From the IMG/VR virus record IMGVR_UViG_3300028584_001240: 64,000 nt of DNA. One strand, given 5' to 3'. Origin of the DNA: a virus (lineage: Duplodnaviria; Heunggongvirae; Uroviricota; Caudoviricetes). Below the pieces are notes generated by a model. That model made no database searches. It saw only the letters and a program-made list of their open reading frames with translations, and was not told the origin of the DNA. A program made the translations under genes and the position numbers. The first letter of the stretch is position 1. Every line of letters begins with the position of its first letter. Positions 30,275 through 64,000 of this stretch are shown one piece after another.

Positions 30275-30275
30275 T

Positions 30276-31013
30276 TTAAATTTTTTCCATGCTAAGAACG
30301 GTTAAGTATTGTTTAAGCGTTTCTTCATCAAATTCAACAGCGTCAAAACATTCTTCTGGGTAAGCGTCAATCAAGAAGGCTTTAAACTCACTCAGCACAC
30401 CTTCTTTGACTACTTTTTGGGCGACTTCATATAATTCATCGTTACCAAGAATAACAGAGAAATAGCCCTCTTCTGAGAGTGGGAATGTGATTTTAGCCCT
30501 TGGTTGAATGACACCATCTTGAAAATGCAAAAACAACTGAATATAAATACGGGCGTCTTTTAGATTTAATCCACCACTGAATTCCTTAGAGTAGTAATTA
30601 CCCTCTGCAGCGACTCCTGCAAAGGAATCATACTTACTGGTAAACTCTTCACGAAAGACAGCTTTTATATAAGAATCGTCATAACGGTCATGCATTTTGA
30701 AATCACGCATGTAGCTGACGTATGCTTCGCAAATAGAATCTACTTTGTCAAAATCAAAACCAAACGATTTATAAATTTGACGTTCAATCAATGAAAACTT
30801 GGTTTTCAAAACATAGATATCTGAATAGTCTTTAAATAGATTTTTTTCAACATTGATAGGTGTGAAATAATCAAGTTCCGACCATTTTACTGAATACTTT
30901 GTTAACTTTAATGATGTCTCATGAGCACCATTAAATAAAAGTTTATTCGTATCAAATGAATAGGCATTCAAGGTATTAACAAAATCTTTAAGCCCTTCGT
31001 TCATTGTACTCAT
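30276..31013 (-). CDS. C-terminal tail family protein (245 aa; ends ...YLTVLSMEKI)
   Basis: ORF table. Tail motif. Confidence 0.55.
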   Translation of the reverse strand: MSTMNEGLKDFVNTLNAYSFDTNKLLFNGAHETSLKLTKYSVKWSELDYFTPINVEKNLFKDYSDIYVLKTKFSLIERQIYKSFGFDFDKVDSICEAYVSYMRDFKMHDRYDDSYIKAVFREEFTSKYDSFAGVAAEGNYYSKEFSGGLNLKDARIYIQLFLHFQDGVIQPRAKITFPLSEEGYFSVILGNDELYEVAQKVVKEGVLSEFKAFLIDAYPEECFDAVEFDEETLKQYLTVLSMEKI

Positions 31014-31429
31014 GAGTTAAAACCTACACTGGATTCTGCTGTTTTAATGGAAACCCAATCCACCAAGGAAAGGACACTGAAATCACACATTTCATTAGTA
31101 ACAATAAAGGAACCCAGTGGGATTTTGAAATCTCCATGAACAAAGACTGAATGGTTTGTTTCAAAGTTAATTTGTTCGTCAAATGAATGCGTGAATGCCG
31201 CCAACGCTTCATCATAGCCAGCCATACCTTCTTCAAGTTTCTGGCAAGCACTCAAATCTTGTTGAACTTGCTCATAAAGATCTCGCCAACGGGTAATGAA
31301 AATAAACAAAGCATTTCTCAACAAATTATCAAATTCAATAACAGAATGATTAGATTCAATAACAATCACTGAAGCTTCGCTATTTTTACCATGATGGGTA
31401 AATGTTCTTGAAATAACAATCTGATTCAT
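31010..31429 (-). CDS. hypothetical protein (139 aa)
   Basis: 4-nt overlap with the downstream family gene. No tail motif. Confidence 0.45.
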   Translation of the reverse strand: MNQIVISRTFTHHGKNSEASVIVIESNHSVIEFDNLLRNALFIFITRWRDLYEQVQQDLSACQKLEEGMAGYDEALAAFTHSFDEQINFETNHSVFVHGDFKIPLGSFIVTNEMCDFSVLSLVDWVSIKTAESSVGFNS

Positions 31430-38095: not shown

Positions 38096-38149
38096 AACAA
38101 GACCTCAAAAAAATAAACCTTATAGAATTATAAGATTTATGTAATAATG

Positions 38150-38224
38150 TTGAAGAGGAAGGATTTGAACCTCCGACATACCCGCCCAAAATGCAGGCTG
38201 CTCTACCCACTGAGCTACCCTTCA
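38150..38224 (-). tRNA. tRNA, anticodon most likely UUU (Lys); no encoded CCA
   Basis: RC is TGAAGGG-TA-GCTC-AGTGGGTA-GAGC-...CCTGC-ATTTTGG-GCGGG...GGAGG-TTCAAAT-CCTTC-CTCTTCA. Acceptor stem (one G-U), D-arm and T-arm fold well. Junction spacing around the anticodon stem is slightly non-canonical, so the isotype is tentative. Confidence 0.6.
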
Positions 38225-38272
38225 AACTCTTTATAAAACAATAGAGCAACTAGGTTACTCTATTTTTTAAAT

Positions 38273-38349
38273 TGGTCGGAGTGGCAGGATTTGAACCTGC
38301 GGCATCTTGCTCCCAAAGCAAGCGGTCTACCGGGCTGACCTACACTCCG
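38273..38349 (-). tRNA. tRNA-Pro (anticodon UGG) with genomically encoded CCA
   Basis: RC is CGGAGTG-TA-GGTC-AGCCCGGTA-GACC-G-CTTGC-TTTGGGA-GCAAG-ATGCC-GCAGG-TTCAAAT-CCTGC-CACTCCG-A-CCA. Perfect cloverleaf, G37. Confidence 0.85.
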
Positions 38350-43885: not shown

Positions 43886-44614
43886 ATGAATGAGAAATAC
43901 ACAATAGTCCAGAATGATAGTTTAGAATTTGATGAATTGTTCGATGTCAGTCAAATTAATATGAGTTATTATTTTTCAAATTGGGTTAACAATGAGATTA
44001 AAATGACAAAAATTATTAAAAAACTTTATCTGGAAGGTATAAAAGTTGATATGATTAATATGTATGCAAATCCAGACAAGGGAGATCACCGTGAATATTG
44101 TGATGTTGAGAATCGTGATGATAGAATATATTACAATTTTATTAGTCAATTATTAAAACAATCTCATGCTAGAAATGACTTCAATTATTATGAACATTTA
44201 CCATTATCTGATCGAAAAGGTTATATGGATATTTGCTATCTCTTCAATAGGCCAAAAATAGAAATAAGATATCACACTAAAACAATTAGCACTATTTTTA
44301 CATTTACTGAGACTGGTTTGGTTATTGTATACAAAATTAACAATAATGACAGTAATAAAATGATGATAGAAATAAAAATCAATGAGAATAATGAAATATT
44401 ATCAACAATTGTTCACTTTAATGGAAAGATTTATAAAGAACCAGAAAAGATAAAATTAAGTCATAAACAGCTAGATTATCTTATTGCTTTATGTCATTAT
44501 GGCATGATAGAAGAGAAAGATTTTAATGTAGAGCCATATATTGATAAGGTGTTAGCAGAAGATTATAAAGATGTAATTAATTATTTTAAAGTAAAAGAGA
44601 TGACTTACATATGA
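43886..44614 (+). CDS. C-terminal tail family protein, subfamily B paralog 1 (242 aa; ends ...NYFKVKEMTYI)
   Basis: Shares SNKMM, QLDYLI and KVKEM blocks with the next gene. Confidence 0.6.
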   Translation: MNEKYTIVQNDSLEFDELFDVSQINMSYYFSNWVNNEIKMTKIIKKLYLEGIKVDMINMYANPDKGDHREYCDVENRDDRIYYNFISQLLKQSHARNDFNYYEHLPLSDRKGYMDICYLFNRPKIEIRYHTKTISTIFTFTETGLVIVYKINNNDSNKMMIEIKINENNEILSTIVHFNGKIYKEPEKIKLSHKQLDYLIALCHYGMIEEKDFNVEPYIDKVLAEDYKDVINYFKVKEMTYI

Positions 44615-45405
44615 CAAATCAATATATCGTAAAAATACTCAGCTCAAAACATGTCTTTGATGAGACATCTAATAAGGGTGTTGAGAATAAATATTTAACT
44701 GTAAAAACAGAAAATGAAGACTTTAAAAAGTTATTGGATATTAGTGCTATAAACAGCAGATATTATTTTTCAGCGTGCTTAAATATTAAAGATAAAGTTA
44801 CTCAACATCTAAAAGAGACGAATAAAAAATTCGCAGACGTTAGACCTTATCACGCTCCTGATAAAGATGATTGCACGGAATATACAGATGTAAAAAATCA
44901 GAACTCTACTGTATACATGGATTTTATTGAGAACCTTGTTAAAAATGCACATGCAAGAAGTCATTTAACATTTGTGGACTATATTAAAGACATTCATAAA
45001 AAAGCTGACGTTATTTTTTCTCACTTTTTTGACAATGCTAAGATAAGTATCACCTATTTTACAAAACCTATCATGCTTTGTATGAATTTTGATAAAAATG
45101 GATTGAATATTGTCTATATGCTAAATAGTTGTGACAGCAATAAAATGATGTTAGACATTACTATTAATCACAACACTGAAATTATCTCAACAGAAGTTTA
45201 CTTTAATTTTAATAATACAAGATCAAATGAAACAGATATGATTACTTTAAACCATCAACAATTAGATTACCTTATTGTATTAAGTCATTATGCTGACGGT
45301 GAAGAGATTGATTTTATGGTTGAAAAATATGTTGATGACATTTTAGCTGAGAACTATCAAGATTTACTCGATTACATTAAAGTTAAAGAAATGATGCACA
45401 TCTAA
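44611..45405 (+). CDS. C-terminal tail family protein, subfamily B paralog 2 (264 aa; ends ...DYIKVKEMMHI)
   Basis: ATGA overlap with the previous gene. Confidence 0.6.
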   Translation: MTNQYIVKILSSKHVFDETSNKGVENKYLTVKTENEDFKKLLDISAINSRYYFSACLNIKDKVTQHLKETNKKFADVRPYHAPDKDDCTEYTDVKNQNSTVYMDFIENLVKNAHARSHLTFVDYIKDIHKKADVIFSHFFDNAKISITYFTKPIMLCMNFDKNGLNIVYMLNSCDSNKMMLDITINHNTEIISTEVYFNFNNTRSNETDMITLNHQQLDYLIVLSHYADGEEIDFMVEKYVDDILAENYQDLLDYIKVKEMMHI

Positions 45406-45829: not shown

Positions 45830-45908
45830 TATAATCTCCTATTAGAAGCACTATAATAACATAAACAAGCAGAAATGACAATAAAAATGATTAATTGAAA
45901 GAAAAATA

Positions 45909-45937
45909 AAAAAACTGTTGACATTTTTTTAATTAAA
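45909..45937 (+). promoter_or_regulatory. candidate sigma70-type promoter (TTGACA, 17 nt spacer, cacaat) for thrS leader
   Basis: ttgacatttttttaattaaagatcacaat read directly. Confidence 0.4.
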
Positions 45938-45969
45938 GATCACAATATAAGTAATTGGAGAAAATTCAG

Positions 45970-46047
45970 ATGAAATTATTTGCAGTAAACACAACGACTA
46001 CAACAACTCAGTTCAATAGCTGGGCTGGTCGATTGTTGCTGTCTTAA
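45970..46047 (+). CDS. Thr-rich leader peptide MKLFAVNTTTTTTQFNSWAGRLLLS (six consecutive Thr codons)
   Basis: Manual translation. GGAG SD 8 nt upstream. Followed by a terminator hairpin with an alternative pairing, in the classic thr/trp-type attenuator arrangement. Confidence 0.7.
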   Translation: MKLFAVNTTTTTTQFNSWAGRLLLS

Positions 46048-46067
46048 AATAATCGGAACCACAAAAA

Positions 46068-46092
46068 CCCAGCTAAACGGCTGGGTTTTTTT
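46068..46092 (+). terminator. attenuator terminator cccagc-taaac-gctggg + T7; AGCTGGG at 46018-46024 in the leader can pair with CCCAGCT (antiterminator)
   Basis: Read directly. Confidence 0.65.
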
Positions 46093-46148
46093 ATGCCTAA
46101 AATAAATGATTAACACAAACACAAACTAAACTATCAAGGGGAAATAAA

Positions 46149-47327
46149 ATGAACGACAAATTAAATGAAGAAAAGAGATACATGAAAGTCGCCAAAGAAA
46201 TGAACTTATTCATGTTGGCTGAAAGTGCAGGTGTTGTTTACTGGAAACCAGAAGGGCTTAAATTGTATGAGAATTTAAAATCTTTTATTCGTAAACACCA
46301 TGAAGACGCTGGTTATCTTGAAGTCAAGAGTCCATCCATTGTGGTGCCTAGCTTATTTGAGCAGTCTGGTCATATGGATAAATACAAAGATAACATGTTC
46401 TTTCTCAATTCATCAGAAGCCAGTAACTACGCTCTCCGTCCTATGAGCTGTCCCAACCATATCCTAATCTATCAATCAGAAAAAAGAAGCTACCGTGAAC
46501 TCCCATTACCAATATTTGAGTTTGGTGAGGTGTTTCGTAATGAAGCGTCTGGTGCATTACAAGTGTTATTCAGACAAAGACAATTCTGTCAGGATGATAG
46601 TCATGTGTTTGTGAATGAAGAAAATCTAATCAGTTCGGTCAATCAATACATACAGATGAGCCAAAAAGCGTATGAAGAACTCGGATTCAAAAAGATTAAA
46701 TACGCCATTGCGTTACGTCCAGAAAAAAGATTTGGTGATGACATCTTATGGGATAAAGCCGAAGAAGCCTTGCGAGAAGCCTGCAGAATGAATAATCTTG
46801 ATTTCGTAGAAAACGAAAATGACGGGGCTTTCTATGGCCCGAAACTAGAACTCCAAGTAGAAGACAAACTCGGCAGATCATGGCAATTAGGTGTGATACA
46901 GCTTGATTATGTTCTTCCAGAACGTTTTGGACTTGAATACATTGATGCCGATAACAAACCTAAGCGTCCTATTATTCTCCACCATGCCGTATTAGGTTCA
47001 CTTGAACGCATGATAGGGATCTTGTTGGAGTCCTTTGGTAAAGACATACCTGACTTCTTACACCCTATGAAATCAGTGGTTATTCCAGTATCCGAAAAAT
47101 CTATGGAGTATGCAAAGGTCGTATTCTCTCATATGGATAAGAAATCATCTAAACTGGATCAAAGTGCTGATTCATTAGGTAAGAAGATTCGATACTGGAA
47201 AGAACGTGGTGTTCCTGAGATCATTGTAGTCGGTGAAGCTGAACAAAGTAAATATGACAATGAAGGTGTGATTAGTTTTGTCGTCAATCTTGGTGCTGTC
47301 AAAGAAGTCAGAGAAATTAAGCCATAA
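46149..47327 (+). CDS. thrS: threonyl-tRNA synthetase-like protein: catalytic core plus anticodon-binding domain only (N-terminal TGS and editing domains absent)
   Basis: 392 aa. Class II ThrRS blocks KSPSIVVPSLFEQSGHMDKYKDNMF, ALRPMSCPNH and FRQRQFCQDDSHVF align by eye with ThrRS from about residue 240 onward. Confidence 0.75.
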   Translation: MNDKLNEEKRYMKVAKEMNLFMLAESAGVVYWKPEGLKLYENLKSFIRKHHEDAGYLEVKSPSIVVPSLFEQSGHMDKYKDNMFFLNSSEASNYALRPMSCPNHILIYQSEKRSYRELPLPIFEFGEVFRNEASGALQVLFRQRQFCQDDSHVFVNEENLISSVNQYIQMSQKAYEELGFKKIKYAIALRPEKRFGDDILWDKAEEALREACRMNNLDFVENENDGAFYGPKLELQVEDKLGRSWQLGVIQLDYVLPERFGLEYIDADNKPKRPIILHHAVLGSLERMIGILLESFGKDIPDFLHPMKSVVIPVSEKSMEYAKVVFSHMDKKSSKLDQSADSLGKKIRYWKERGVPEIIVVGEAEQSKYDNEGVISFVVNLGAVKEVREIKP

Positions 47328-47347: not shown

Positions 47348-47371
47348 TAAAGAGGCTTCGGCCTCTTTTTC
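47348..47371. terminator. terminator agaggc-ttcg-gcctct + T5 (UUCG tetraloop)
   Basis: Read directly. Confidence 0.65.
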
Positions 47372-47991
47372 TATTGATAAAACATAATAACGGCTTTCTT
47401 TTCATCCTCAGACATCTCAGTAACAGTCTTGTCAAGAATGTGTTTAAAATAAGCCTCTCTGAAGGTTTCATTGATAACTCTTATTTGTTCATTGACATTT
47501 TGAAGTTGAGTGTGATTAAATTCAAGTTGAATGTATCCTGTTGGCGTTTGCATCGTCAAGTAAGGTAATGCGAGCGGCTTACTATTGTCAGGTCTAAAAT
47601 AAAATACATTGCTATAATAAAAACTTTTTGTCTCTAATGTATATTTCTCTGGATGTCTTTTATGCTTTTCAATGAGACGAACATTTTCCAAGAAAGTTAA
47701 AAAGAGTTTTCTAGTCTGAATGTGTTCAGAGTAATCAATAACTAAATTATTCTCAGTTATCGCTTTTGAATTAAATTTAACAGTGTTCATGAAAAACATG
47801 TCATATTGATCTATCGTATCTTTATCAAGATGGAAGAAAGCTTCACCCACAATAATAAAGTTATTTTCACTGAGTGCTTTATCAAATGCTATTTTATTAG
47901 AATGTCTATATATTTCACCTTCACAATGTGTGTAAGTGTGTTTTTGATTATCTAATTTATCTCTTAAAAAACGTTTAAAATCCTTAATCAT
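47371..47991 (-). CDS. C-terminal tail family protein, subfamily C paralog 1 (206 aa; ends ...EKKAVIMFYQ)
   Basis: ORF table. Tandem with the three following genes. Confidence 0.55.
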   Translation of the reverse strand: MIKDFKRFLRDKLDNQKHTYTHCEGEIYRHSNKIAFDKALSENNFIIVGEAFFHLDKDTIDQYDMFFMNTVKFNSKAITENNLVIDYSEHIQTRKLFLTFLENVRLIEKHKRHPEKYTLETKSFYYSNVFYFRPDNSKPLALPYLTMQTPTGYIQLEFNHTQLQNVNEQIRVINETFREAYFKHILDKTVTEMSEDEKKAVIMFYQ

Positions 47992-48000
47992 AAAAAGCCC

Positions 48001-48669
48001 TCAATAGTAATACATCTTAACAATTTGCTTTTCTGATTTAGTAAGCTTCTCTGTCGTGTCCTTTTTGTCAATAAGTTGTGAATAGTACCTAATAAAAAAT
48101 TCATTGTCAATCATTTTAACGGCATTCTCAAAACTATATTCATTGTTTTTTACAATAATATAAAGTTCTGGAAATTCTTTATACTTTTTAAATTTTAAAA
48201 CGATTTTTTGATAGATATTTCCATGTAACGAATGGTAAACATACACTGGATAGATTTCAATATGATCAAGGTTAGCATACACTGGGTTTTTCTTTTTATT
48301 TATTTCATCGCCTTTATTGATAAGACGAAGATGATTTGTAATCACCTTAAAAAATTTTTTAGCATGATAATTATCAACATTCTCAAAATAGACCTTTCTA
48401 GGCGATTCTTTTTTTGATAATAGATTAGGTTTAATGTCGAAAGAGCACTCATGCTCTGAGTCATGTTGGAAATAAGTCAGATTACCAATAGCATAAAATC
48501 TATCATAACCTGATCTTATTTTCGGTGTGCCATCTGGATTTACCGCTTCCTGAACAATAGTGTAACCAGAAGATATTTGATATCTATAATTAATATTACT
48601 GACGGAATGCTTTAAATAGTAATTAAAGGACGCCATATTGTCAGGTAAATCGAATTTTCCTATATCCAT
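48001..48669 (-). CDS. C-terminal tail family protein, subfamily C paralog 2 (222 aa; ends ...EKQIVKMYYY)
   Basis: ORF table. Confidence 0.55.
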   Translation of the reverse strand: MDIGKFDLPDNMASFNYYLKHSVSNINYRYQISSGYTIVQEAVNPDGTPKIRSGYDRFYAIGNLTYFQHDSEHECSFDIKPNLLSKKESPRKVYFENVDNYHAKKFFKVITNHLRLINKGDEINKKKNPVYANLDHIEIYPVYVYHSLHGNIYQKIVLKFKKYKEFPELYIIVKNNEYSFENAVKMIDNEFFIRYYSQLIDKKDTTEKLTKSEKQIVKMYYY

Positions 48670-48673
48670 AATA

Positions 48674-49414
48674 TTAATAGTAAACCATTTTAATCAACTC
48701 TTGTTCTTTTTTGTTAAAGAATTTGCCACGCTCAATTTTTTCACGATCAACAATACCATTATAATAACGTGTTTGAAATGTTTTTTCCATATCATCAATA
48801 GCGGCTAAAAATTTGTTGTCATCATTTAAAATAACAATTTTATGTTCTGGGTAGCCATTGCTTGCTTTAAATTTAAGGAGAGCACATTTACTAACGATTT
48901 GACTAATACGATCATATCTGTAGAAGCACCTAACCATAAGCGATTTTGAATCAAAATTAATAAGTTCACGTTTTTTATGCAAAAGAGTAGCTTCATTTAA
49001 AAGTTTAAGGTGCCGTTTTAATCTCACCCAAAATTCATCAACATGAAACCTATAAACATAATCAAATTTAATAGGTTTACCTGTATCATCTTTTGAAGTG
49101 AGCAGTGTAAAAGAGACTTCGAAATCAGAATCCCAATTACATTCACGACCATTAACAATACTGGCAACCTGATAAAATTTATCATAATACCGAATATGAC
49201 CACTGCCCCAACCAGAAGTTTCATAGACTCTAATTCTATGACCATCAGTCGTTAAGGGATAACGATGAACATAAATGGAATCATCACCATACTCATATTC
49301 GGCATTTGAAAATTTCGAAGAAAAGTATTTTGCAAGTTCAGTCGCTTTATTAATTTCAGTGGAAGGCATAAACATAATAAGAGAACCTTTTTTTAATTTA
49401 AGTAAGTGTATCAA
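48674..49414 (-). CDS. C-terminal tail family protein, subfamily C paralog 3 (246 aa; ends ...EQELIKMVYY)
   Basis: ORF table. Confidence 0.55.
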   Translation of the reverse strand: MIHLLKLKKGSLIMFMPSTEINKATELAKYFSSKFSNAEYEYGDDSIYVHRYPLTTDGHRIRVYETSGWGSGHIRYYDKFYQVASIVNGRECNWDSDFEVSFTLLTSKDDTGKPIKFDYVYRFHVDEFWVRLKRHLKLLNEATLLHKKRELINFDSKSLMVRCFYRYDRISQIVSKCALLKFKASNGYPEHKIVILNDDNKFLAAIDDMEKTFQTRYYNGIVDREKIERGKFFNKKEQELIKMVYY

Positions 49415-50142
49415 TAATAGGTCATTTTTACAAGTTCTTTTAAACGTTCATCCCATTTTGAAATATCCAATAGAGCATAAACATCATCAAAACTCATATT
49501 AGGATAAGCTTCTTTTATTTTGTCTTTGTAATACAGTTTAAAAAACTCAATGTCCATATTTTTTAACGTATTCTGTGTAGTTAACATATTATCCGTTACA
49601 TAGTAGACTGGAAGGATTTCACTAGATGATTTGTTACTTTTCATAAACTGAACAGCTAGAGTTCTTGAAATTTTTTTATTAAGCTGATCATATTTGAAAT
49701 TAAATTTAATTGAAAAGTCGTTGCAGACAATAAATTGATAATCGTCAGAAATATTTTTTTGATTGAGAAGTGTTAAGTGTTGATTAGTATGTTGCATAAA
49801 CAAATCAATCATTGGTGAAGATAAATCACCAAAACGTTCAGAATAAATATCATCGTATTTAGAAGATAATTCAAAAAAAAGTGAACTTGGTGTGTCACCT
49901 TTACCAACATGAGCAATAGTTTCCGACTTAGCGGCTGTGCCACCATACATTCCATAAGTAAAAGGAGCTTCTTTAAGTGCTTCAATAATCCGATTACCCT
50001 CTTTATCTAATGGATAACGACAGATTCCAATTGGATTAGTACCATACTCGTAGTGTTCATTTGTAAAGTTGTTTACAAAATAATCAAGGAATCCATACAA
50101 GGGAAACTGTTTCTTTTTTTCTTCATCAATGACTTCATTCAT
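49411..50142 (-). CDS. C-terminal tail family protein, subfamily C paralog 4 (243 aa; ends ...LKELVKMTYY)
   Basis: ORF table. 4-nt overlap with the downstream gene. Confidence 0.55.
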   Translation of the reverse strand: MNEVIDEEKKKQFPLYGFLDYFVNNFTNEHYEYGTNPIGICRYPLDKEGNRIIEALKEAPFTYGMYGGTAAKSETIAHVGKGDTPSSLFFELSSKYDDIYSERFGDLSSPMIDLFMQHTNQHLTLLNQKNISDDYQFIVCNDFSIKFNFKYDQLNKKISRTLAVQFMKSNKSSSEILPVYYVTDNMLTTQNTLKNMDIEFFKLYYKDKIKEAYPNMSFDDVYALLDISKWDERLKELVKMTYY

Positions 50143-50164
50143 AGTCGTTCCTTAATTTCGAATG

Positions 50165-50190
50165 CAAAAACGGATGGCCGAAGCCATCCG
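50165..50190 (-). terminator. terminator cggatggc-cgaa-gccatccg + T5 on minus strand
   Basis: RC read directly. Confidence 0.6.
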
Positions 50191-50208
50191 TAAACAGTAA
50201 ACATTTTA

Positions 50209-50859
50209 TCAATCTTTCTTGCCCATAATACTGAGGATTCGCAAGAACAAGTTGATGATGTCCATATACAGTGCAGCGGCTGAGTCTACGGCGTTATCGA
50301 CAGTTTTAGGAAGTGCCGAAGCTTTACCCCAGTCGTAACCGATATAACCACAGAAGATAGCAGCAATAATCCAGTCCATAATGCCCAAGTCCATTTTAAA
50401 CACAAAGGTCAAAATCAATTCAGCAATAATAGATGCCAGCAAACCCCAAAACAGACCTGATGCAATACTCTCAAAGAACTTAGGATAGGCAGTGCCCAAC
50501 ACCATCATAATACACGTTACCACCGTTGTAACCTGCATGGCATTGATAACCAGCTCAGGTGAATACTGTGATGTTACCATATTCACAATCAAACCAAATG
50601 GCACTGCCACAAAGTTAAAACCTATAAAGCTGACAAGAGCGTTATCAGATTTAGTAAACAAATAAATACCAAACAAGCAGCTTGCAAAATAACCAATCAA
50701 GAAAACCCAAATATTAATGGACAACAGACTGGCTACTGGAATGGTTTTAACGATAAAGACGTTCATCAAAAAACCATACAGCAATACAGCACCAATGATA
50801 AAATTATACAATCGTGTAGAAATTGTATTTTCCGAAGCATAAGCCGTAGATGTTTTCAT
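50209..50859 (-). CDS. Bax-inhibitor-1/YccA (TMBIM) family membrane protein
   Basis: 216 aa, about 7 TM segments. C-terminal AALYMDIINLFLRILSIMG matches the family signature (D-I-I-N-L-F-L). Confidence 0.65.
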   Translation of the reverse strand: MKTSTAYASENTISTRLYNFIIGAVLLYGFLMNVFIVKTIPVASLLSINIWVFLIGYFASCLFGIYLFTKSDNALVSFIGFNFVAVPFGLIVNMVTSQYSPELVINAMQVTTVVTCIMMVLGTAYPKFFESIASGLFWGLLASIIAELILTFVFKMDLGIMDWIIAAIFCGYIGYDWGKASALPKTVDNAVDSAAALYMDIINLFLRILSIMGKKD

Positions 50860-50928
50860 TTATTTTAAAACTCCAAGTAGTTAATGTTAAGGCCATATTA
50901 TAGCAAAAATCAGACATATTTACAACAA

Positions 50929-51498
50929 TTAAATGCAAATCATGCGAATAACTTCACGTTCTTCTGGTGTCATGCTTGCTAAGGGTTTAATCAATTCTTC
51001 TGGAATAGGTTGACCAAAATAGCTAATGTAATAATCTAACACTTTTCTTTCCATTTCTTCAATATTACTGTCATTTACTTCAAAAAGAGACATGTGATAA
51101 TCACCATATTCAAGCTCGTTAAATTCAAAGAGATGAACCTTTTGAATATGCCCAGATAAATTGATAAAATAATAAGCATACTCATTATAACATTCATCAT
51201 ATTTTTCAGGATTGAAAAACTCATCATAATCTTTAATGATATTATATAGCTTGGACTCAAATGAATATTTTTCTTCAAGATAATTTAAAAAATCACTCCA
51301 ATTGTGATGATCTGGGTTAATGCCAAAAGCATGACCTTCATCCAATGTGATGTGATCAACTAGATTGTGTTCATGGACAAGCTTTGGCCGGGTCAATCTA
51401 AAAGATTTTTTAGTAATCCCTTTCGAGATAAGAAAATCTTTGACCTGTTCATAAATTGTGTCATAGGAAAACTCTTTGGTTTCAATCATCAATATCAC
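50929..51498 (-). CDS. C-terminal tail family protein, subfamily D paralog 1 (189 aa; ends ...TPEEREVIRMICI)
   Basis: ORF table. Confidence 0.55.
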   Translation of the reverse strand: MILMIETKEFSYDTIYEQVKDFLISKGITKKSFRLTRPKLVHEHNLVDHITLDEGHAFGINPDHHNWSDFLNYLEEKYSFESKLYNIIKDYDEFFNPEKYDECYNEYAYYFINLSGHIQKVHLFEFNELEYGDYHMSLFEVNDSNIEEMERKVLDYYISYFGQPIPEELIKPLASMTPEEREVIRMICI

Positions 51499-51555
51499 CT
51501 TTAAAATAGATGAATCATTATAGCATTATAATAACAAAAAATCCACACAATCTAT

Positions 51556-52122
51556 CTAAATATGAATCATTTCAAGTAACGATATTTCTTCTTTTGATAA
51601 TTGACTTAATGGTCTTTTTAATTCTTCTGGTGTGTTGGCATTTCCAAAATACTGAAAATAGTAATCGAAAATTCTAGTTTCTAATGAGCGTAAATTAGTG
51701 TCATCAAATTCAAGAAACTTCATATAATCATTGCCCAACTCAATGTCAGTAAAGTCAAATGAATAAACTTTTCTCAGTCTTTGATCCATATCAAAAGCAT
51801 AATGACCATTAACATAATAACAGTCTTTTCTCGGATGCTTATTAAAAAAGTCATCATAAAAACCCAGTGTTTTTTCAAGGCGGCTCTCAAAAGAATAACG
51901 ATGGTCTAAATATTCAGCCAAAGGTTCACAAAAAGGATGGTTCCATTTGATTTTAAAACAATGCCCCATCGAAATAGTTTGATTATCAAAAATAATTTCA
52001 CGAGTCAGAATCTCTGGAATTGCTGCACAGAAGTCTTCCTTTTTGATAGAATTAATCAAACAAAAAGTTTGAAGAGATTCAAAGACAGTCTCATCAGTAA
52101 ACTTATAGGTTTCAATCGTCAT
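51556..52122 (-). CDS. C-terminal tail family protein, subfamily D paralog 2 (188 aa; ends ...SKEEISLLEMIHI)
   Basis: Shares DYYxxYFG, PEEL and RPL blocks with its neighbours. Confidence 0.55.
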   Translation of the reverse strand: MTIETYKFTDETVFESLQTFCLINSIKKEDFCAAIPEILTREIIFDNQTISMGHCFKIKWNHPFCEPLAEYLDHRYSFESRLEKTLGFYDDFFNKHPRKDCYYVNGHYAFDMDQRLRKVYSFDFTDIELGNDYMKFLEFDDTNLRSLETRIFDYYFQYFGNANTPEELKRPLSQLSKEEISLLEMIHI

Positions 52123-52137
52123 ATAAAACTCCTAGAA

Positions 52138-52758
52138 TCAAAACACATACATCAAAAATACTTTATATTCCTCTGGTGTCATCTTAGTAATAGGTTTTCT
52201 AAGTTCATCAGGTAAATCCGGCATATAACGAATATACGCTCTATTAAAGAATTCCTCAATCATTTCATAGTAAAGCGTATCATCCATGCCTTCATACATA
52301 ATAATTTCAACACCATCATCGTCTTCATTACAACAATCCGTCAATCTAAGCGTTCTAGCCACTTTAAGCAATCCATTTTTATCAAAATAAAAAGCTTCTT
52401 CATAATCATCAAATGGGTCGTCTTGAACATTAAGACTATTAGCAATTTGGTAAATTTTATCCATAATAGGAAAATGGATATCACCATCATTATTCTGTGT
52501 GCAATGTGCGGCTGCTAATTGAGTTAGCTTACGTTCACAGCTTTCAAGTTGCCAAAAAATAGTGAAACAATCCACCGAAATTTTACTGTATTCACAATAG
52601 TTATTATAGGTGGCAACATTCCCCATCACTTCATCAGTGGTATAGACCTTACCGTCTTTAGTAAATGTAATAGTATCTATAAATTTCCTAATATCATCAA
52701 TTGTGTATTCTTTTGAGATTTTAGGGTAGTTAGTATATTGATAAAAGTCGTGTTTCAT
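52138..52758 (-). CDS. C-terminal tail family protein, subfamily D paralog 3 (206 aa; ends ...TPEEYKVFLMYVF)
   Basis: ORF table. Confidence 0.55.
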   Translation of the reverse strand: MKHDFYQYTNYPKISKEYTIDDIRKFIDTITFTKDGKVYTTDEVMGNVATYNNYCEYSKISVDCFTIFWQLESCERKLTQLAAAHCTQNNDGDIHFPIMDKIYQIANSLNVQDDPFDDYEEAFYFDKNGLLKVARTLRLTDCCNEDDDGVEIIMYEGMDDTLYYEMIEEFFNRAYIRYMPDLPDELRKPITKMTPEEYKVFLMYVF

Positions 52759-53618
52759 ATTGTCTCCATCATTAATAAAGCAAGATAACGATCACGCATC
52801 TCAGTATTAGACAAATCAATCTGGTCTTTTTTCAACCCGTAACGTTGCTTAATGATAGGAAGAAGCCTACTGATAAATTGTGCTTCCATGATTTCAGGCA
52901 ATTGGTCTTTATTAATAGGTCGAGACATCGAAATAAGGTCTTCATAAGATCGAGCCGCAAACACTTGTCTAGTAGTATACACTGTATCAGCATAAACATC
53001 CACAATAAAACTGGCCGCATAGTCTTGGTCAAACCAAGTATCTACAATAAATATGGGTTTAAGGTTGTTGTGTTGATCAATATAAAAATGAAGTTGACTT
53101 TTAATCAAAGAAACCTTTATATGGCTGTATCGTTTATTTTTTTTGTAAGCCTGATTAAATTTTAATTGGGCAATGTTACAACGGCAACATACATCATCTT
53201 GGGCATATTTAGATTTAAAAGAAATATAAGCCACAGGATTTGCAGCTACTGTTTCAAAATCATTCTGCACAATAGACAATATGCCAGATGAAGACATATT
53301 TTTAGCAACATCAATATAAGCTTTTAATACATTGTCAACAGTTTCTCTTTTGATGTTAAAGGCTTTGCAGAAAGTGTGTTCAAACTCATTACGATCTTCT
53401 TTTACAAAGTGATCGACTTTAAAGATTGCACGATTTTTATGAATAAAAACATTAAAGTGACTGTCTGTATTAGTGATTTTAAATTCAAACTGTCCAAAAG
53501 TGCCGGGAACACTTCCGCCTTCTGATGGCGTGTTGATAGCTACATGGGAACTGAGAGCTTGATGTATGTGATCAGCAAAAATTTCTTCTGGCCGTAGACT
53601 GTTTGTAATAGATTGCAT
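52755..53618 (-). CDS. C-terminal tail family protein (287 aa; ends ...RYLALLMMETI)
   Basis: ORF table. 4-nt overlap. Confidence 0.55.
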   Translation of the reverse strand: MQSITNSLRPEEIFADHIHQALSSHVAINTPSEGGSVPGTFGQFEFKITNTDSHFNVFIHKNRAIFKVDHFVKEDRNEFEHTFCKAFNIKRETVDNVLKAYIDVAKNMSSSGILSIVQNDFETVAANPVAYISFKSKYAQDDVCCRCNIAQLKFNQAYKKNKRYSHIKVSLIKSQLHFYIDQHNNLKPIFIVDTWFDQDYAASFIVDVYADTVYTTRQVFAARSYEDLISMSRPINKDQLPEIMEAQFISRLLPIIKQRYGLKKDQIDLSNTEMRDRYLALLMMETI

Positions 53619-55043: not shown

Positions 55044-56918
55044 TCAGACTGCAATGTATTTTGCAACAAATTCAGCTTCGGTCAAGATTTCAATATCAAC
55101 ACCTTTCGCTTTCAAGGCTTGGGCGTCAGCAAGTTTACTACCAGCACTTTCACCGTAAACAAGAATTTGTGTTGTCTTGCTTGCTTTGCTTTGGATCTTC
55201 GCACCTTTCGATGTGAAGAACGCTTCAATCTCTTTACGTGAGTAGCTAACCATTGTACCAGTTACCACCACGTTCTTACCAGAGAATGGACTATCATTGT
55301 CAACAACTGCTTGTGAAGACAATTCAAGATTGAACAAAGGACGCAAGGTATTAATCAATTCAAGTTTTTCTTGAATACCGGCTGGAATGAGAACGCTATT
55401 CACTGGGCCGTAACCTTTCATCTTAATCAACTTACCTTCTTCGACTTCATGCAGTGCGTCGATATTGAAGACTTTAAGCAACTTTTTAGAGTCGCCTTTA
55501 CCAAGACTCGAAATACCGAAGGCTGCAAGGAAACGCCAGTCTTCAATTTGACTTGATTTACTGGTTTCAAGAGCGGCGACCAAGTTAGGGCTTTCACCTT
55601 TACCAAAACCAGCGGTCAAGAAATCCTGCTCTTTCATTGCGTAAATCTTTTCCAAGGTGTCGAAACCTGCTTCAACCAACTTAGCGACTGTTTTACCACC
55701 AAAACCATCGTTGTTAGCCAATGTTGCAAAGAAGTGCAACAAGGTCTGGCTAATTTGTTCCGAGCAACCTGAATGGTTAGGGCAGAAAAGGAAGTGACTT
55801 TCCCATTCAAGCACAGTGTTACAGCAAGGGCAGTTCGTTGGAACTTCGTATTCAGCTTGGGTAATCACTTTTTCAATTTTAGGGATTACTTCACCACTAC
55901 GAATGATTTCAATGACGGCACCTACACCCATTTTGTTCGTGCGAACGTTGTTCATGTGGTGAGCGGTTACGTTACTAATCGTTGCACCAGACACAAGAAC
56001 AGGAGCCACAGCAAGAACCGGCGTGATAGTGCCAGTGCGACCTACTTGAAGTTTAACATCAAGCACAGTAGTCTGTGCAGTTTCACCACGTTCTTTAAAT
56101 GCACACTGCCATTTATTGTGATGGTTGTTGTAGCCCATGTATTCTTTGATTTCTGGAACAATGGATTCAATCACGAAACCGTCAATCAAGTAAGGAATAG
56201 CAGCACGCAAATCGTTGTTGATTTGTACAAGGTTAGCAAGAATGTCATCAGCCGTGCCAACATAAGCCTGCAACGTGGTGTAAGGCACAAAATGAATCGC
56301 ACCGTCATCCAAAGCCTTCTGAGTTTCAGGGCGTGTATCTTCCTGAGACAATACGCTGCTCATCATGTTACGTGGATGTGGGAACATCGAAGCAAGGTTC
56401 TCTGCGAAATAAGTCTTGTCAATCACCAACTCGCCACGACCTTCTGCATTTTCTTTACGAATAACACCTTTATCGTAGATGTAAGTAATGTCGTTACCAC
56501 GAATGCCATCACCACGAGTAGATAGTTTTTCTGTTTCATGGCAACCCGCAAAACCATCAAGTTTGCAAGTAACTTTATACATGGATTTTACATGAAGATC
56601 CTGAGCTACGTCTTCAACACGTTTAAACCATTTAGCCAAGGCTTCGGAAGTGTAGAATTTTTCGGTTGACAGCATAGGGGAAGAGTGAGTAATAGCGTTT
56701 TCGCCAACTTCTTCCAATTCAATTTCATCAAACCATGTTGATTCAGGGAATTTAGCACGAAAATCTTCAACAACAGCGTCATAATTTTCATCGGCAATTG
56801 GATCAAGACCAAACAATGCAGTCTTTGGCAACGATTTACGGTAGCAATCGTTATAATCTTCAAGCAGCTCAATGAAAGCAGCTTCGGTTGTTGGGTATTT
56901 GATGTCATTGATATTCAT
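55044..56918 (-). CDS. ligA: NAD-dependent DNA ligase
   Basis: 624 aa. Adenylation motif CKLDGFAG (KxDG), Cys4 zinc finger CPCCNTVLEWESHFLFCPNHSGC, HhH region and C-terminal BRCT domain. Confidence 0.88.
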   Translation of the reverse strand: MNINDIKYPTTEAAFIELLEDYNDCYRKSLPKTALFGLDPIADENYDAVVEDFRAKFPESTWFDEIELEEVGENAITHSSPMLSTEKFYTSEALAKWFKRVEDVAQDLHVKSMYKVTCKLDGFAGCHETEKLSTRGDGIRGNDITYIYDKGVIRKENAEGRGELVIDKTYFAENLASMFPHPRNMMSSVLSQEDTRPETQKALDDGAIHFVPYTTLQAYVGTADDILANLVQINNDLRAAIPYLIDGFVIESIVPEIKEYMGYNNHHNKWQCAFKERGETAQTTVLDVKLQVGRTGTITPVLAVAPVLVSGATISNVTAHHMNNVRTNKMGVGAVIEIIRSGEVIPKIEKVITQAEYEVPTNCPCCNTVLEWESHFLFCPNHSGCSEQISQTLLHFFATLANNDGFGGKTVAKLVEAGFDTLEKIYAMKEQDFLTAGFGKGESPNLVAALETSKSSQIEDWRFLAAFGISSLGKGDSKKLLKVFNIDALHEVEEGKLIKMKGYGPVNSVLIPAGIQEKLELINTLRPLFNLELSSQAVVDNDSPFSGKNVVVTGTMVSYSRKEIEAFFTSKGAKIQSKASKTTQILVYGESAGSKLADAQALKAKGVDIEILTEAEFVAKYIAV

Positions 56919-60912: not shown

Positions 60913-61692
60913 TCAAATATAAGACATTCTGATAAGATCAAGCTCTCTTTTATTAAACATCTTATTGGTTCTTAAAAAATGAGTAAAGCTACTACCATAC
61001 AGTTTAGTCACACTTATCTCACATGTTTTAAGAATATCACTCAGTAAAATAGATTCCAGTTCACCTGATTTAAAGACAAAATAATGCACATCATAAATAT
61101 TAACATCGTGTAAAGTGGTGCCATCTTCTTGAAGTATGCTTTTAATGGGGCGTTCAACCACCATAGGCACTGTGCCATTAATACCTTTCTGCAAAGGTCT
61201 GCAGTCTTCCAAGAAATACCAAATTTGGTCGATTTTAAACGTGGTATCATCAATTTCATATGACATGCTTTTTAAATAAAGATCTTTTAACAATCTTTTA
61301 GGTTTTGCAAATTTAATCATCCGTGGCAATCCTGACGGACTAAATGCTATGTTATATGACAAAGAATATTCGCTTCCTTTTTCAAAGGATGCACTAGTTA
61401 TTACAAAATAGGATTGCTCTTTTTTATCAACAACCGCCGAGGCAAGTTCAAGGACACATCCTTTGTTATTACTATATCTATAAATAATTTCATTAACTTC
61501 AAACCCAATATCATTAAAAAATTGATTGAGTTCATCCGTGTCCAAGTCAAACTTCAAGCAATAATTTGAACTTTCAATAATATTCATAACCAGCGGTTTG
61601 TATTCTTCACAGTTTTCTTTATTGATTAGATAATGATCAACATAATGAAATTCAATTCTAGATAAGTAATCTTCTTCAGTAGCTTCTGGCAT
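60913..61692 (-). CDS. C-terminal tail family protein, subfamily E paralog 1 (259 aa; ends ...KRELDLIRMSYI)
   Basis: Shares LQKGINGxxxMxxExP, NIYDVxY and DIL.xC blocks with the next two genes. Confidence 0.6.
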   Translation of the reverse strand: MPEATEEDYLSRIEFHYVDHYLINKENCEEYKPLVMNIIESSNYCLKFDLDTDELNQFFNDIGFEVNEIIYRYSNNKGCVLELASAVVDKKEQSYFVITSASFEKGSEYSLSYNIAFSPSGLPRMIKFAKPKRLLKDLYLKSMSYEIDDTTFKIDQIWYFLEDCRPLQKGINGTVPMVVERPIKSILQEDGTTLHDVNIYDVHYFVFKSGELESILLSDILKTCEISVTKLYGSSFTHFLRTNKMFNKRELDLIRMSYI

Positions 61693-61713
61693 ATTTAACT
61701 CCCTAAATCGTAT

Positions 61714-62496
61714 TTAGATATACATCATCTCAATGATATCCCGCTCTCTTTTAGTAAACATTTTAGACATAGTAAGAAAATCAGTGTAATCAGTGCCATA
61801 CATTCTAGCACAACTAAAATCACACTGTGTTAATATATCAATCAGTCGAACTTCCTTAGATTTACCATGTACAGTATAGTAAACATCATAGATATTTACA
61901 TTGTAAAATGACTGAGTGTTTTCAACAATTCTTTTTAATGGATGTTCAATAATCATTGTTATATAGCCATTAATACCTTTTTGTAGCTTTCTGTTATCGT
62001 TAAAACAATAACCAATTTGGTCGATCTTAAGAGTATCACAGTCTATGATATAATGAATAGATTTAAGGGTAAGTCCTTTCAATATTTTGTTTGCTGATTT
62101 AAATGTTCGAGAAACAGCAACACCTTGTAAATTGTAAGACGTAAAATAACTGTGAACGTAACGATCATTCTTAGTAAACTCAACCCATTGCAAGACATAG
62201 CGGTCTTGTACAACCTCACCCTCAATGACAGCAGTTAAATCAATCTCACATCCTTGGTTGTCATTGAATTTCAACGTATTTTCTTCAGATAAAAATCCAG
62301 ATAATGAGAGAAATTCATTCAATTGTGCTCGTTTTAAATCAAATTTTATGATGTAAGAATAATCTTTCAACATCTCAATGAGATTGTCTTTGTATTCATG
62401 CATATTATTTTCGTTAATAATATGTGTCTCCAAATAACGATATTCAATTTTGGCTTCTAACTTGGTAGGTTTTAGTGTATTCATAACAATCGTCAC
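61714..62496 (-). CDS. C-terminal tail family protein, subfamily E paralog 2 (260 aa; ends ...KRERDIIEMMYI)
   Basis: Paralog by eye. Confidence 0.6.
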   Translation of the reverse strand: MTIVMNTLKPTKLEAKIEYRYLETHIINENNMHEYKDNLIEMLKDYSYIIKFDLKRAQLNEFLSLSGFLSEENTLKFNDNQGCEIDLTAVIEGEVVQDRYVLQWVEFTKNDRYVHSYFTSYNLQGVAVSRTFKSANKILKGLTLKSIHYIIDCDTLKIDQIGYCFNDNRKLQKGINGYITMIIEHPLKRIVENTQSFYNVNIYDVYYTVHGKSKEVRLIDILTQCDFSCARMYGTDYTDFLTMSKMFTKRERDIIEMMYI

Positions 62497-62576
62497 TCAA
62501 TAATTCTTTGTATATTATACTATTTTACTTAATAAATCAATTGAAATGTTGATTTTCTTTTTTAATTTGTTATCCT

Positions 62577-63341
62577 ATGCCTAAGAAAAGGATACTGACC
62601 ATGAATATGAAAAAAGTTAAATTAGCAGACGTATTTGAAAAGTATGGCTCTCATTATATGGTGAAATATCATGCCAGTATAGAAAATGGTATTATTTTTG
62701 AAATTGAAAAAAAATTTGGACATTCTAGAGCTAAAAATACATTTTCGACGGAATATAATATTTTTACAACTTTTAATCCACTACTTGACGAAGATTACAA
62801 AAATCTAGTTGAATATCACAGTGAAGAAATCGCTCAACTAAATAAAGGTTCTTTCTTATCAACACTCATTAATAAAGATAAAAAAGAAAAAATTAAATAC
62901 CATCAAAACAGACTAGAAGCCTTAAATGAAGTGTATGCCACCAGCGAAAAAGATAGATATATCACCAATGAGAATGATGTTGTGGTTCTCTATACTTCTG
63001 AGATTAATGTAGGTGATCATTTGCATATTGTTGATTTAAGAAATAAAGAAGAAATTAACCTTGAAACAGTTTATGTAGATGAATTGGTTCCTTTTTTTGA
63101 TGATGATAAAAACATACGATTAAAAATAAACATAAGGGCTTTTAATGTTGATAAAGTTGAATTAGACAATATCAACTTCGTTGATAACTATTGTTCTCCA
63201 ATAACTGATTATCATGTATTTAATGATCGTGAAAAAGCTTATGATTTTTCAATAGAAGAACTCATGAAAAACGAATACAATGAAAACATAAAAATGAGAT
63301 TAAAGCTTGCCAAAAAGATAGACAATTTATTTGGATATTAG
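62577..63341 (+). CDS. hypothetical protein (254 aa)
   Basis: ORF table. No tail motif. Confidence 0.45.
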   Translation: MPKKRILTMNMKKVKLADVFEKYGSHYMVKYHASIENGIIFEIEKKFGHSRAKNTFSTEYNIFTTFNPLLDEDYKNLVEYHSEEIAQLNKGSFLSTLINKDKKEKIKYHQNRLEALNEVYATSEKDRYITNENDVVVLYTSEINVGDHLHIVDLRNKEEINLETVYVDELVPFFDDDKNIRLKINIRAFNVDKVELDNINFVDNYCSPITDYHVFNDREKAYDFSIEELMKNEYNENIKMRLKLAKKIDNLFGY

Positions 63342-64000
63342 ATATAAGTCATTTCGATGACTTTCAGTTCATCCTCATCAAAAACATTCTCAATATTCAT
63401 GAAGTGTTCCATATTATTGCCAATCAACCTATCAAAGCTAAAACCACATGTCTGAATAATATCAGATAAGGTGAAAGATCGAATACGATCTGTATCAGAA
63501 GTAATAATATAGACAATATCAAATATGGAGACATTGTTGAATAACTGATCATCAATAGTAATACTTAATAATGGTTCTTCTTCAATGCGATGAATATTAT
63601 AGTCAAGCTTATGTGCAAATGTTTTAAGCGAGTTTGAAGTATGTAATTCAATATGATTTAAATCGAAAAGATCGCATGAATGATGAATGCTTATGATATC
63701 ATACGTTTCTTTATCGAGTTTTATGACATAGTTAAAATCTACTGAGTATGTGCCCTTAGAATACTGTTCATATTGACTCTTGTAACTGATGTCAATTCTA
63801 TACATATGCTCAAATTCAAAAGAAATTCTTTTAACATTATCAGGGTAGTTAAGTGTTGATAAATAATAACCCTGTTTATGTTTAGGGGATGTACGGATAG
63901 ATAGAGTTAAGTGATAACCTGAACTATTCTTATAAATAGATCTTTCTTGTCGTTTAAAACCTAGCTTATTAAGAAATGAATCAATCTCGCCAACTGGCAA
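63338..64000 (-). CDS. C-terminal tail family protein, subfamily E paralog 3, 5' end outside window (ends ...DELKVIEMTYI)
   Basis: The ORF runs to the window edge. 4-nt overlap with the convergent gene. Confidence 0.55.
   Translation of the reverse strand: MPVGEIDSFLNKLGFKRQERSIYKNSSGYHLTLSIRTSPKHKQGYYLSTLNYPDNVKRISFEFEHMYRIDISYKSQYEQYSKGTYSVDFNYVIKLDKETYDIISIHHSCDLFDLNHIELHTSNSLKTFAHKLDYNIHRIEEEPLLSITIDDQLFNNVSIFDIVYIITSDTDRIRSFTLSDIIQTCGFSFDRLIGNNMEHFMNIENVFDEDELKVIEMTYI

Follow-up and report, generated by a model that had tools for sequence, protein, structure and literature searches.

What controls a threonyl-tRNA synthetase (ThrRS) gene carried on a virus-like genome, and under what conditions would it be expressed? 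This question is raised by a locus in IMG/VR record IMGVR_UViG_3300028584_001240 (Caudoviricetes), of which a stretch of 64,000 nucleotides (nt), hereafter the window, was analyzed. A short open reading frame (ORF) with tandem threonine codons and an intrinsic terminator here precede thrS, which encodes a protein of 392 amino acids (aa) that has a class II catalytic core, an anticodon-binding domain and nothing more (46149–47327, + strand; coordinates below refer to this strand unless noted). Our reading, which we hold at a probability of roughly 85%, is that the region is a ribosome-mediated leader-peptide transcription attenuator built of four RNA segments, which adjusts expression of the single-gene thrS unit to how much charged tRNA-Thr is available. 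Translation of the leader, ribosome stalling, the kinetic choice between structures and the direction of regulation are the parts of this reading that we infer from sequence.

A threonine-codon leader and a terminator precede thrS

The leader ORF (45970–46047) consists of 25 codons and a stop codon (TAA, 46045–46047) and would yield the peptide MKLFAVNTTTTTTQFNSWAGRLLLS. Its translation agrees exactly with an initial annotation of the locus, which had described a 25-codon ORF with a GGAG Shine-Dalgarno (SD) sequence and six consecutive Thr codons. The SD was read at 45957–45960, 9 nt upstream of the ATG. The Thr codons (ACA ACG ACT ACA ACA ACT, 45991–46008) are cognate to the ThrRS gene downstream and form the regulatory run and putative stall site. 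This was the only run of at least four Thr codons when all six frames of the window were scanned, and six or more ACN codons in a row would be expected by chance about 0.004 times per window. The ORF, which has its own translation start, lies directly 3′ of a sigma-70-type promoter identified by consensus scan (45918–45946; −35 TTGACA at 45918–45923, a 17-nt spacer, and −10 CACAAT at 45941–45946). This site falls within the span covered by the initial annotation (45909–47327) and is predicted to function as a promoter. Counted up to the T tract, the element measures ~125 nt if the leader ATG is taken as its start and ~180 nt if the promoter is.

An intrinsic terminator (46063–46092) is located between the leader ORF and thrS, with the form AAAAACCCAGCT/AAAC/GGCTGGGTTTTT followed by seven T residues (T7, 46086–46092). 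Its parts are CCCAGCT (46068–46074), the loop AAAC (46075–46078), and GGCTGGG (46079–46085), and the stem reaches 12 bp once flanking A and U residues are counted. The initial annotation had recorded both hairpin and T7, although with one G dropped; the correct form is CCCAGCT-AAAC-GGCTGGG. In a consensus scan, the stretch separating the terminator from thrS (46093–46148) yielded no promoter-like site.

Alternative folds of the leader RNA

Segment 1 (45982–46013), delimited from minimum free energy (MFE) folds, comprises the Thr codons with flanking bases, and in ribosome-free RNA it pairs with segment 2 as an anti-antiterminator. This pairing engages the regulatory codons themselves: 12 of the 18 Thr-codon bases pair downstream in the MFE folds of both the leader ORF and the full leader. 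Segment 2 (46017–46042) consists of a core, TAGCTGGG (46017–46024), and a G/U-rich stretch (46026–46042), and has either segment 1 or segment 3 as its partner. Segment 3 (46048–46075) combines AATAATCGGAACC and CCCAGCTA and pairs with segment 2, forming the antiterminator, or, via CCCAGCT, with segment 4 in the terminator (3:4). The antiterminator joins TAGCTGGG to CCCAGCTA (46068–46075). Within it, AGCTGGG (46018–46024) is, as had been pointed out initially, the exact complement of CCCAGCT, the 5′ arm of the terminator. The duplex between segment 2 core and terminator 5′ arm has a free energy of −13.0 kcal/mol, and a site as good was found in 0.2% of same-length random windows drawn from the 64-kb sequence.

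The full leader of the window folds as 1:2 plus terminator. When the Thr codons are masked and segment 4 has not yet been made, it folds as 2:3, a long interrupted hairpin (46007–46078, −21.5 kcal/mol) whose outer helix joins the segment 2 core to the terminator 5′ arm, whose inner hairpin scores z = −2.95 against shuffles, and whose apical loop contains the leader stop codon. This 2:3 pairing is left free by a ribosome on the Thr codons and excludes the terminator. The folding check hence gave stable alternative pairings, bearing out the mutually exclusive terminator and antiterminator that had been proposed.

Conservation across orthologous loci

Thirteen distinct orthologous loci were compared: the window and twelve further family members, fetched protein by protein. 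Folds and spacing were determined on an earlier subset (the first 11 loci), with loci L254 and L255 added afterwards. The ThrRS of the twelve further loci share 57–85% identity with that of the window (57–100% counting the window), and the 13 loci span AT-rich and GC-rich sequence, two GC-rich loci using ACC/ACG Thr codons. The leader, for which conservation in related genomes had been left as a check, is kept in all 13 loci with the co-variation detailed below. It has 18–26 codons and holds 5–9 consecutive Thr codons in 12 of the loci (TTTITTT in L248). A promoter equivalent, TTGA(C/T)N-17-TAnnnT, was found 19–34 nt upstream of the leader ATG in nine of the first 11 loci, near-consensus equivalents were read by eye in L250, L251, and L254, and an SD-like motif precedes the leader ATG in eight of the first 11.

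In the alignment, positions 1 and 2 of the Thr codons (A, C) are invariant and position 3 is variable, the residues flanking the Thr run are not conserved among loci, and the RNA motif GCTGGGCTGG falls in differing reading frames from locus to locus. Hence, the Thr run is constrained as codons and the segment that follows it as RNA. This pattern bears on a broader alternative, in which the leader senses general translation stress or lost transcription-translation coupling during infection and the Thr run is merely a slow patch. Such a reading draws on the fact that the architecture reads ribosome position, so that any early stall would give read-through, and that the ribosome-free structure terminates. 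Nonetheless, retention of a cognate run (12/13 loci, with TTTITTT in the remaining one) across changes in G+C content and codon usage argues for amino-acid specificity. We consider a general stress sensor unlikely, and it would widen the attenuation model more than compete with it.

The intrinsic terminator is likewise present in all 13 loci, located 15–32 nt 3′ of the leader stop and 37–60 nt 5′ of thrS in the first 11. Across the terminator alignment, 95% of cells are paired and eight of ten pairs show compensatory changes; neither the paired percentage nor the covariation score was matched by any of 500 shuffles. The antiterminator is also retained. For 10 of the first 11 loci, the best site for the terminator 5′ arm starts 4–12 nt 3′ of the Thr run, forming duplexes of −9.8 to −14.5 kcal/mol that rank in the best 0.2–2% of random same-locus windows, and the L254 site lies ~13 nt past the run (best 1.5%). 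When the sequences are aligned without regard to structure, 84% of antiterminator cells are paired, compared with 23–56% when the partner is slid. Moreover, three segments change together between loci (segment 2/terminator 5′ arm/terminator 3′ arm): GCUGGG/CCCAGC/GCUGGG in the window, GCUGGAU/AUCCAGC/GCUGGAU in L254, CUGGGC/GCCCAG/CUGGGC in L245, CGGGCC/GGCCCG/CCGGGCC in L251, and UGCCAG/CUGGCA/UGUCAGG in L255. All 11 loci that were folded adopt 1:2 plus terminator as the full leader, the Thr codons pairing with the G/U-rich part of segment 2. With a ribosome on the Thr codons and segment 4 unmade, all 11 adopt the 2:3 fold, and the stop codon then falls within the loop or the upper part of the stem.

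These comparisons also address a simpler arrangement, whereby the short ORF is independent or untranslated, the hairpin is a constitutive terminator or stabilizing stem, and thrS, insensitive to tRNA-Thr, is expressed through a fixed level of leak-through or from a start site of its own. No other element is as stable as the terminator, which is also the sole helix that RNAalifold recovers unaided; it is favored at equilibrium in most loci, and leader translation and read-through are predicted steps under attenuation, all of which would suit this arrangement. However, it leaves unexplained a peptide kept in its Thr run only, while the flanks and the frame of the RNA motif vary, and a segment matching the terminator 5′ arm that holds its position and co-varies with both arms. 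The regulatory codons are also cognate to the downstream enzyme, and the spacer in which a separate start would have to lie (37–60 nt in the first 11 loci) had no promoter-like site in the window by scan. We therefore regard a constitutive terminator as improbable and favor attenuation.

Two further observations concern the set of loci itself. The database gene call of L254 (2001–3248; protein P0112, 415 aa) begins within the leader region; the leader starts at 1943 and is followed by the terminator and an SD, and the true thrS start is likely near 2094. Scanning IMG/VR with a DNA pattern of segment 2 plus terminator returned L252, a GC-rich contig that has no Thr run and was rejected as a chance match, and otherwise just a 437-kb contig already known.

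Proposed mechanism

Under the attenuation model, host RNA polymerase would start at the sigma-70-type promoter, and a ribosome would load at GGAG/ATG and trail the polymerase. When Thr-tRNA(Thr) is plentiful, the ribosome would pass the six Thr codons and reach the stop at 46045–46047; positioned in the 2:3 apical loop, it would keep segments 2 and 3 apart, so that CCCAGCT pairs with GGCTGGG and transcription ends at T7. If no ribosome is loaded, segment 1 would pair with segment 2 and the terminator would form again. When Thr-tRNA(Thr) is scarce, the ribosome would stall on the Thr codons, covering segment 1 and freeing segment 2, the core of which begins 9 nt past the last Thr codon, roughly where the front of a stalled ribosome would lie. 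Segment 2 would then pair with segment 3 before segment 4 is made, no terminator would form, and thrS would be transcribed.

The balance between the folds was assessed energetically. The terminator state is favored at equilibrium by 0.4–15 kcal/mol in most loci when no ribosome is present. Masking the second Thr codon narrows the gap in favor of the antiterminator for 10 of 11 loci (L247 is unchanged), and the antiterminator is favored under the stall mask in two. Several points weigh against the model. Despite the ribosome mask, equilibrium still favors the terminator in nine of 11 loci, by 0.1–7.4 kcal/mol. In the window, the segment 2 core ends 21 nt 5′ of the stop codon, beyond the reach of a terminating ribosome. 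The L255 antiterminator is weak (~16 nt 3′ of the run, −9.2 kcal/mol, best 15%), with a segment 2 that is located 3′ of its leader stop, and L250 pairs in a shifted register. Conservation of the antiterminator core is such that, in the alignment made without regard to structure, both partners vary in just two of seven pairs. Three loci (L249–L251) have no clear SD upstream of the leader. Finally, leader translation and conditional read-through are themselves predicted components.

Some of these points shape the model. As the terminator is favored at equilibrium even under the ribosome mask, the switch must be kinetic, and the choice between 2:3 and terminator would thus resemble that of the trp attenuator. 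In the trp attenuator the choice is kinetic, with 2:3 forming before segment 4 exists. A ribosome terminating at the leader stop would merely melt the inner 2:3 hairpin and separate segments 2 and 3.

A truncated threonyl-tRNA synthetase

The reading of the downstream product as ThrRS-like, made originally from the sequence alone, was upheld by profile, alignment, and model. It scores 392.4 bits against the NCBIfam equivalog TIGR00418 (cutoff, 383.65), contains PF00587 (class II core) and PF03129 (HGTP anticodon-binding), and matches the crystallized truncated E. coli ThrRS (residues 242–642) over its whole length. Residues C101, H152, and H278 align with the E. coli zinc ligands C334, H385, and H511 (offset 233) and are invariant in 35 homologs. 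An AlphaFold model (predicted local distance difference test [pLDDT] 89.7, predicted template modeling [pTM] score 0.88) superimposes on truncated E. coli ThrRS 1EVK with template modeling (TM) scores of 0.90/0.88 and a root-mean-square deviation of 1.6 Å, and it also matches 3UGQ and 3A31. Against full-length 1QF6, the target-normalized TM score is just 0.56, with the C-terminal part covered.

The protein aligns only to residues 242–601 of E. coli ThrRS, and its start is equivalent to residue ~234–242. The N-terminal TGS (N1) and editing (N2) domains are not in the product, as the initial annotation had stated of this 392-aa protein. The same two-domain architecture is shared by the engineered E. 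coli delta-N ThrRS (1EVK/1EVL), yeast mitochondrial MST1 (3UGQ), and ThrRS-1 of the crenarchaeon Aeropyrum pernix (3A31). Archaeal short ThrRS partner with a free-standing editing protein (PMC7373986), whereas the 64-kb window was found to hold no significant TGS or editing homolog (tblastn with 11 bacterial N-terminal regions; best E value, 0.03). Truncated E. coli ThrRS mischarges (Dock-Bregeon 2000, cited in PMC7373986). We propose that the window gene yields an active, editing-domain-less ThrRS, which would add threonylation capacity for the carrier replicon.

The gene has its own SD, AAGGGG (46136–46141, by sequence reading), 7 nt upstream of the ATG. Downstream, a terminator scan identified a terminator-like hairpin, AAAGAGGCTTCGGCCTCTTT (47349–47368, no strand assigned), and the next gene (47371–47991) is on the opposite strand; thrS is hence a single-gene transcription unit.

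Short homologs (56–100% identity, 359–415 aa) are common in metagenomes, with ~120 protein clusters known, and some of those with lengths of 395–415 aa may be over-extended calls similar to P0112. The ThrRS core of the window is most similar (~40–45% identity) to full-length ThrRS of Burkholderiales-type proteobacteria. Among ~240 other thrS loci that were fetched, every short form (386–435 aa) sits on an IMG/VR viral contig (L166, L183, L204–L206, L211, L214, L215, L217, L220, L222–L224, L228, L234–L236, L238, L239, L242, and L243), and these contigs are mostly 95–578 kb. Since the short form is the rule among the phage-borne ThrRS fetched, truncation is typical of the setting and no oddity of the window gene, and phage-borne ThrRS in general look to have lost the editing domain. 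No Thr-run leader was found at those other short-ThrRS viral loci. The attenuator looks specific to the clade of the window ThrRS.

Comparison with known control systems

A parallel in regulatory codons is E. coli thrL-thrABC, which also has Thr codons and four segments ending in a terminator, but controls threonine biosynthesis and not a synthetase. The E. coli thrL leader mixes Thr and Ile codons, whereas the leader of the window has a pure Thr run. In build the element follows the thr, trp, and his leaders, and in operation it is akin to E. coli pheM-pheST, where a short leader rich in the cognate codon and a terminator precede a synthetase gene and alternative pairings are read by the ribosome. 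That system nonetheless differs in amino acid and is unrelated in sequence, and it is a chromosomal operon for a full-size enzyme rather than a single truncated thrS on a phage-like replicon. Scored against the corresponding Rfam families, the leader reached 18.5 bits for Thr_leader (RF00506) and 22.3 bits for Phe_leader (RF01859), below the gathering score of 55 in each case, and a permissive Rfam scan of the leader returned sub-threshold matches only, including these two. The leader therefore works like the Thr_leader and Phe_leader families but is not a member of either.

The initial annotation had called attenuation of a ThrRS gene an unusual wiring, which is an overstatement given that pheST is the model for synthetase attenuators (cited in PMC1262725), attenuators of trpS and leuS are predicted for Streptomyces (PMC1262725), transcriptomics of Streptomyces lividans led to the proposal of a thrL-thrS leader (PMC8079986), and cellular thrS loci carry a comparable element (see below). 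The S. lividans case shares with ours a short upstream ORF with cognate codons that is proposed to attenuate thrS. However, its peptide, MKRVRPFLETTPGFVPAR, has two Thr only, and the authors found no clear U-rich terminator (PMC8079986); in the window, by contrast, six Thr codons stand in a row, the terminator is canonical, and the alternative pairings are conserved.

Other thrS genes are regulated through RNA operators, and the same might be asked of this one. In this alternative, the element would be read by a factor other than the ribosome, either as a T-box, as for Bacillus thrS, or as a mimic of the tRNA-Thr anticodon arm bound by ThrRS, as for E. coli thrS. Both mechanisms are documented for thrS (PMC7373986; for the T-box, PMC1262725 and general knowledge), and, like the proposed attenuator, the E. 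coli thrS operator and the Bacillus thrS/thrZ T-boxes provide feedback on ThrRS level by the state of tRNA-Thr. In the E. coli operator a protein binds a tRNA mimic, and in the Bacillus T-box uncharged tRNA binds the leader RNA; neither signature is present in the window. No T-box covariance-model match was obtained in 45850–46200, even at E ≤10, an Rfam scan of the window at gathering score returned two tRNAs only, and no T-box or other Rfam family reached that score for the element in the window or in six related loci. The element is also just ~125 nt long from ATG to T tract, its loops are not conserved and have no anticodon-like loop in common, and conservation along the ACN run has a period of three bases, which points to decoding. 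Furthermore, it is by means of the N-terminal region that E. coli ThrRS represses translation of its own mRNA (PMC7373986, citing Caillet 2003). The window enzyme is without this region, so that autoregulation of the E. coli type is closed to it, whereas attenuation needs no protein. An RNA operator is thus very improbable, and less probable in our view than either alternative above.

Literature searched on thrS leader peptides, phage synthetase attenuators, and editing-less phage ThrRS yielded only the precedents in PMC1262725, PMC8079986, and PMC7373986. Relative to these, the attenuator in the window is the clearest and best-conserved thrS example known to us, and the only one found in a phage-like replicon.

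Threonine-containing leaders upstream of cellular thrS

The nearest cellular counterpart to the window leader came from thrS loci of the Burkholderiales type. In 28 of these, a conserved upstream ORF begins MTPRT (or MRPPT/MTPPT) and has 10–21 codons with 2–7 Thr. It lies mostly ~110–200 nt 5′ of a full-length thrS, mostly around locus positions 1570–1670. Loci of this MTPRT type are L005–L011, L014, L019–L022, L025, L028, L032, L033, L036, L038, L051, L086, L087, and L094, and further L096, L106, L110, L115, L131, L133, L140, and L156. A GC-rich hairpin and U tract follow the ORF in six of six loci inspected (L005, L014, L032, L087, L096, and L156). As in the window, a short Thr-containing ORF, a GC hairpin, and a U tract are thus found just before thrS. 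These loci differ in having fewer Thr codons (often non-consecutive), no sequence similarity to the window leader, and a full-length enzyme that includes the editing domain. An Rfam scan of three MTPRT-type loci returned nothing at gathering score, no mention of the element was found in the literature searched, and neither this RNA nor the window leader is in Rfam 15. Judged from its sequence features, the MTPRT-type element resembles a Thr attenuator acting on cellular thrS.

In a Sutterella locus (L058), the Thr-rich ORF ahead of thrS is a different one, although a similar hairpin with U tract comes after it. Across ~220–236 other thrS loci, a plausibly placed Thr-rich leader was found in one Burkholderiales-type group only.

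The carrier replicon

The window has a G+C content of ~32%, and SD-like motifs precede 63% of its long ORFs compared with 6% in the background. Its recognizable genes encode a bacterial-type TyrRS, a SerRS, an NAD-dependent ligase, and an S49 protease matching phage head-maturation proteases. Besides thrS, these include the TyrRS (2134–3408, −), which carries an S4-like C-terminal domain, the SerRS (16772–18043, −), and the NAD-dependent DNA ligase (55044–56918, −), together with adjacent genes for tRNA-Lys(UUU) and tRNA-Pro(UGG) (38149–38349, −). Translation-related genes are thus clustered in DNA that otherwise defies annotation. One ORF has homologs in jumbo and huge phages, and most others had no match in Pfam or PHROGs.

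The window also holds long same-strand arrays of ORFs of ~190–300 aa, often with overlapping stop and start codons (~10982–24142 [−], 28800–31429 [−], 43886–45405 [+], 47371–53618 [−], and 60913–64000 [−]). BLAST identified small groups of tandem paralogs within them (e.g., 18091–20385, 48001–50142, and 60913–64000), and many of the products end alike (…KMVYY, …KMTYY, …VKEMTYI). The array products tested had no Pfam or PHROGs match.

Relatives of the replicon were sought by DNA and by protein. The window DNA showed no similarity to 50,697 phage records, and the best phage protein match was 41% identical. No relative of the ThrRS above 45% identity was found in 185,579 GTDB species genomes. Scanning IMG/VR with a single protein returned nothing. 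Profile scans of GTDB genomes and metagenomes recovered mostly full-length thrS and one close relative (L084, which is the same as L164), and one relative of 437 kb is filed in IMG/VR as IMGVR_UViG_3300031133_000383. Other relatives of the ThrRS (P0001, P0015, P0034, P0063, and P0098) are on contigs of 1.04, 1.33, 1.36, 1.54, and 1.85 Mb. The 1.04-Mb contig is Ga0310127_000002 and the 1.54-Mb contig is Ga0247725_1000001. If viral, these replicons would exceed the largest phage genome in the searched collection (735 kb, LR756501), and a literature search on megabase phages found no paper describing them. A giant-virus origin, with a eukaryotic host, was considered in view of the megabase contigs, AT-rich DNA, and few recognizable genes. 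It was rejected because of the SD frequency (63% versus 6%), the overlapping gene arrays, the sigma-70-type promoters, and the intrinsic terminators. We therefore take the carrier to be a large replicon of phage-like character that uses bacterial expression signals, and the most interesting question beyond the attenuator itself is what this megabase-scale carrier is.

Other synthetase genes were inspected for comparable leaders. Between a promoter-like TTGCTT-17-TAGAAT (~3582–3610, −) and the TyrRS gene lies a 17-codon ORF, MNASKTFHFQKSFTVRY (3490–3543, −), which has three Phe and a single terminal Tyr; lacking both a Tyr run and a clear terminator, it does not match a Tyr attenuator. The SerRS gene has just 47 nt upstream, and no Arg leader precedes the ArgRS gene of L249. 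Tandem repeats of ~15 nt (TAAAATATAAGTTAT and variants) were found instead just 5′ of that gene, at ~4430–4520 of L249. With no cognate-codon leader at the TyrRS, SerRS, or L249 ArgRS genes, the device is specific to thrS.

Implications

The locus is a new example of a textbook mechanism, and its wiring is not unique. Its value lies in that a thrS gene of a large phage-like element comes with readable regulatory logic for when the synthetase is used. The Thr leader is also independent, non-homology evidence that the truncated enzyme handles threonine, and attenuation fits the loss of the N-terminal region, which E. coli-type autoregulation needs and attenuation does not. The compact element looks portable to E. 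coli-type expression signals.

The expected rise in expression under a shortage of charged tRNA-Thr argues for a demand-driven supplement to host charging, not a constitutive replacement. More tentatively, and with considerable doubt on our part, the carrier, as a virus-like replicon of bacteria from a clade whose members reach ~0.4 to 1.85 Mb, may use the attenuator as an infection-time sensor of host tRNA-Thr charging, deploying its editing-less ThrRS only when host threonylation lags. If true, virus-encoded translation genes would have their first documented leader-peptide attenuator, and there would be a direct, testable reason why huge phages carry synthetases. In that case, regulated expression might also limit Ser-for-Thr mistranslation by a non-proofreading enzyme. 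Together, the window leader and the MTPRT-type leaders suggest that thrS genes come under attenuation more widely than one would expect from the E. coli and Bacillus models.

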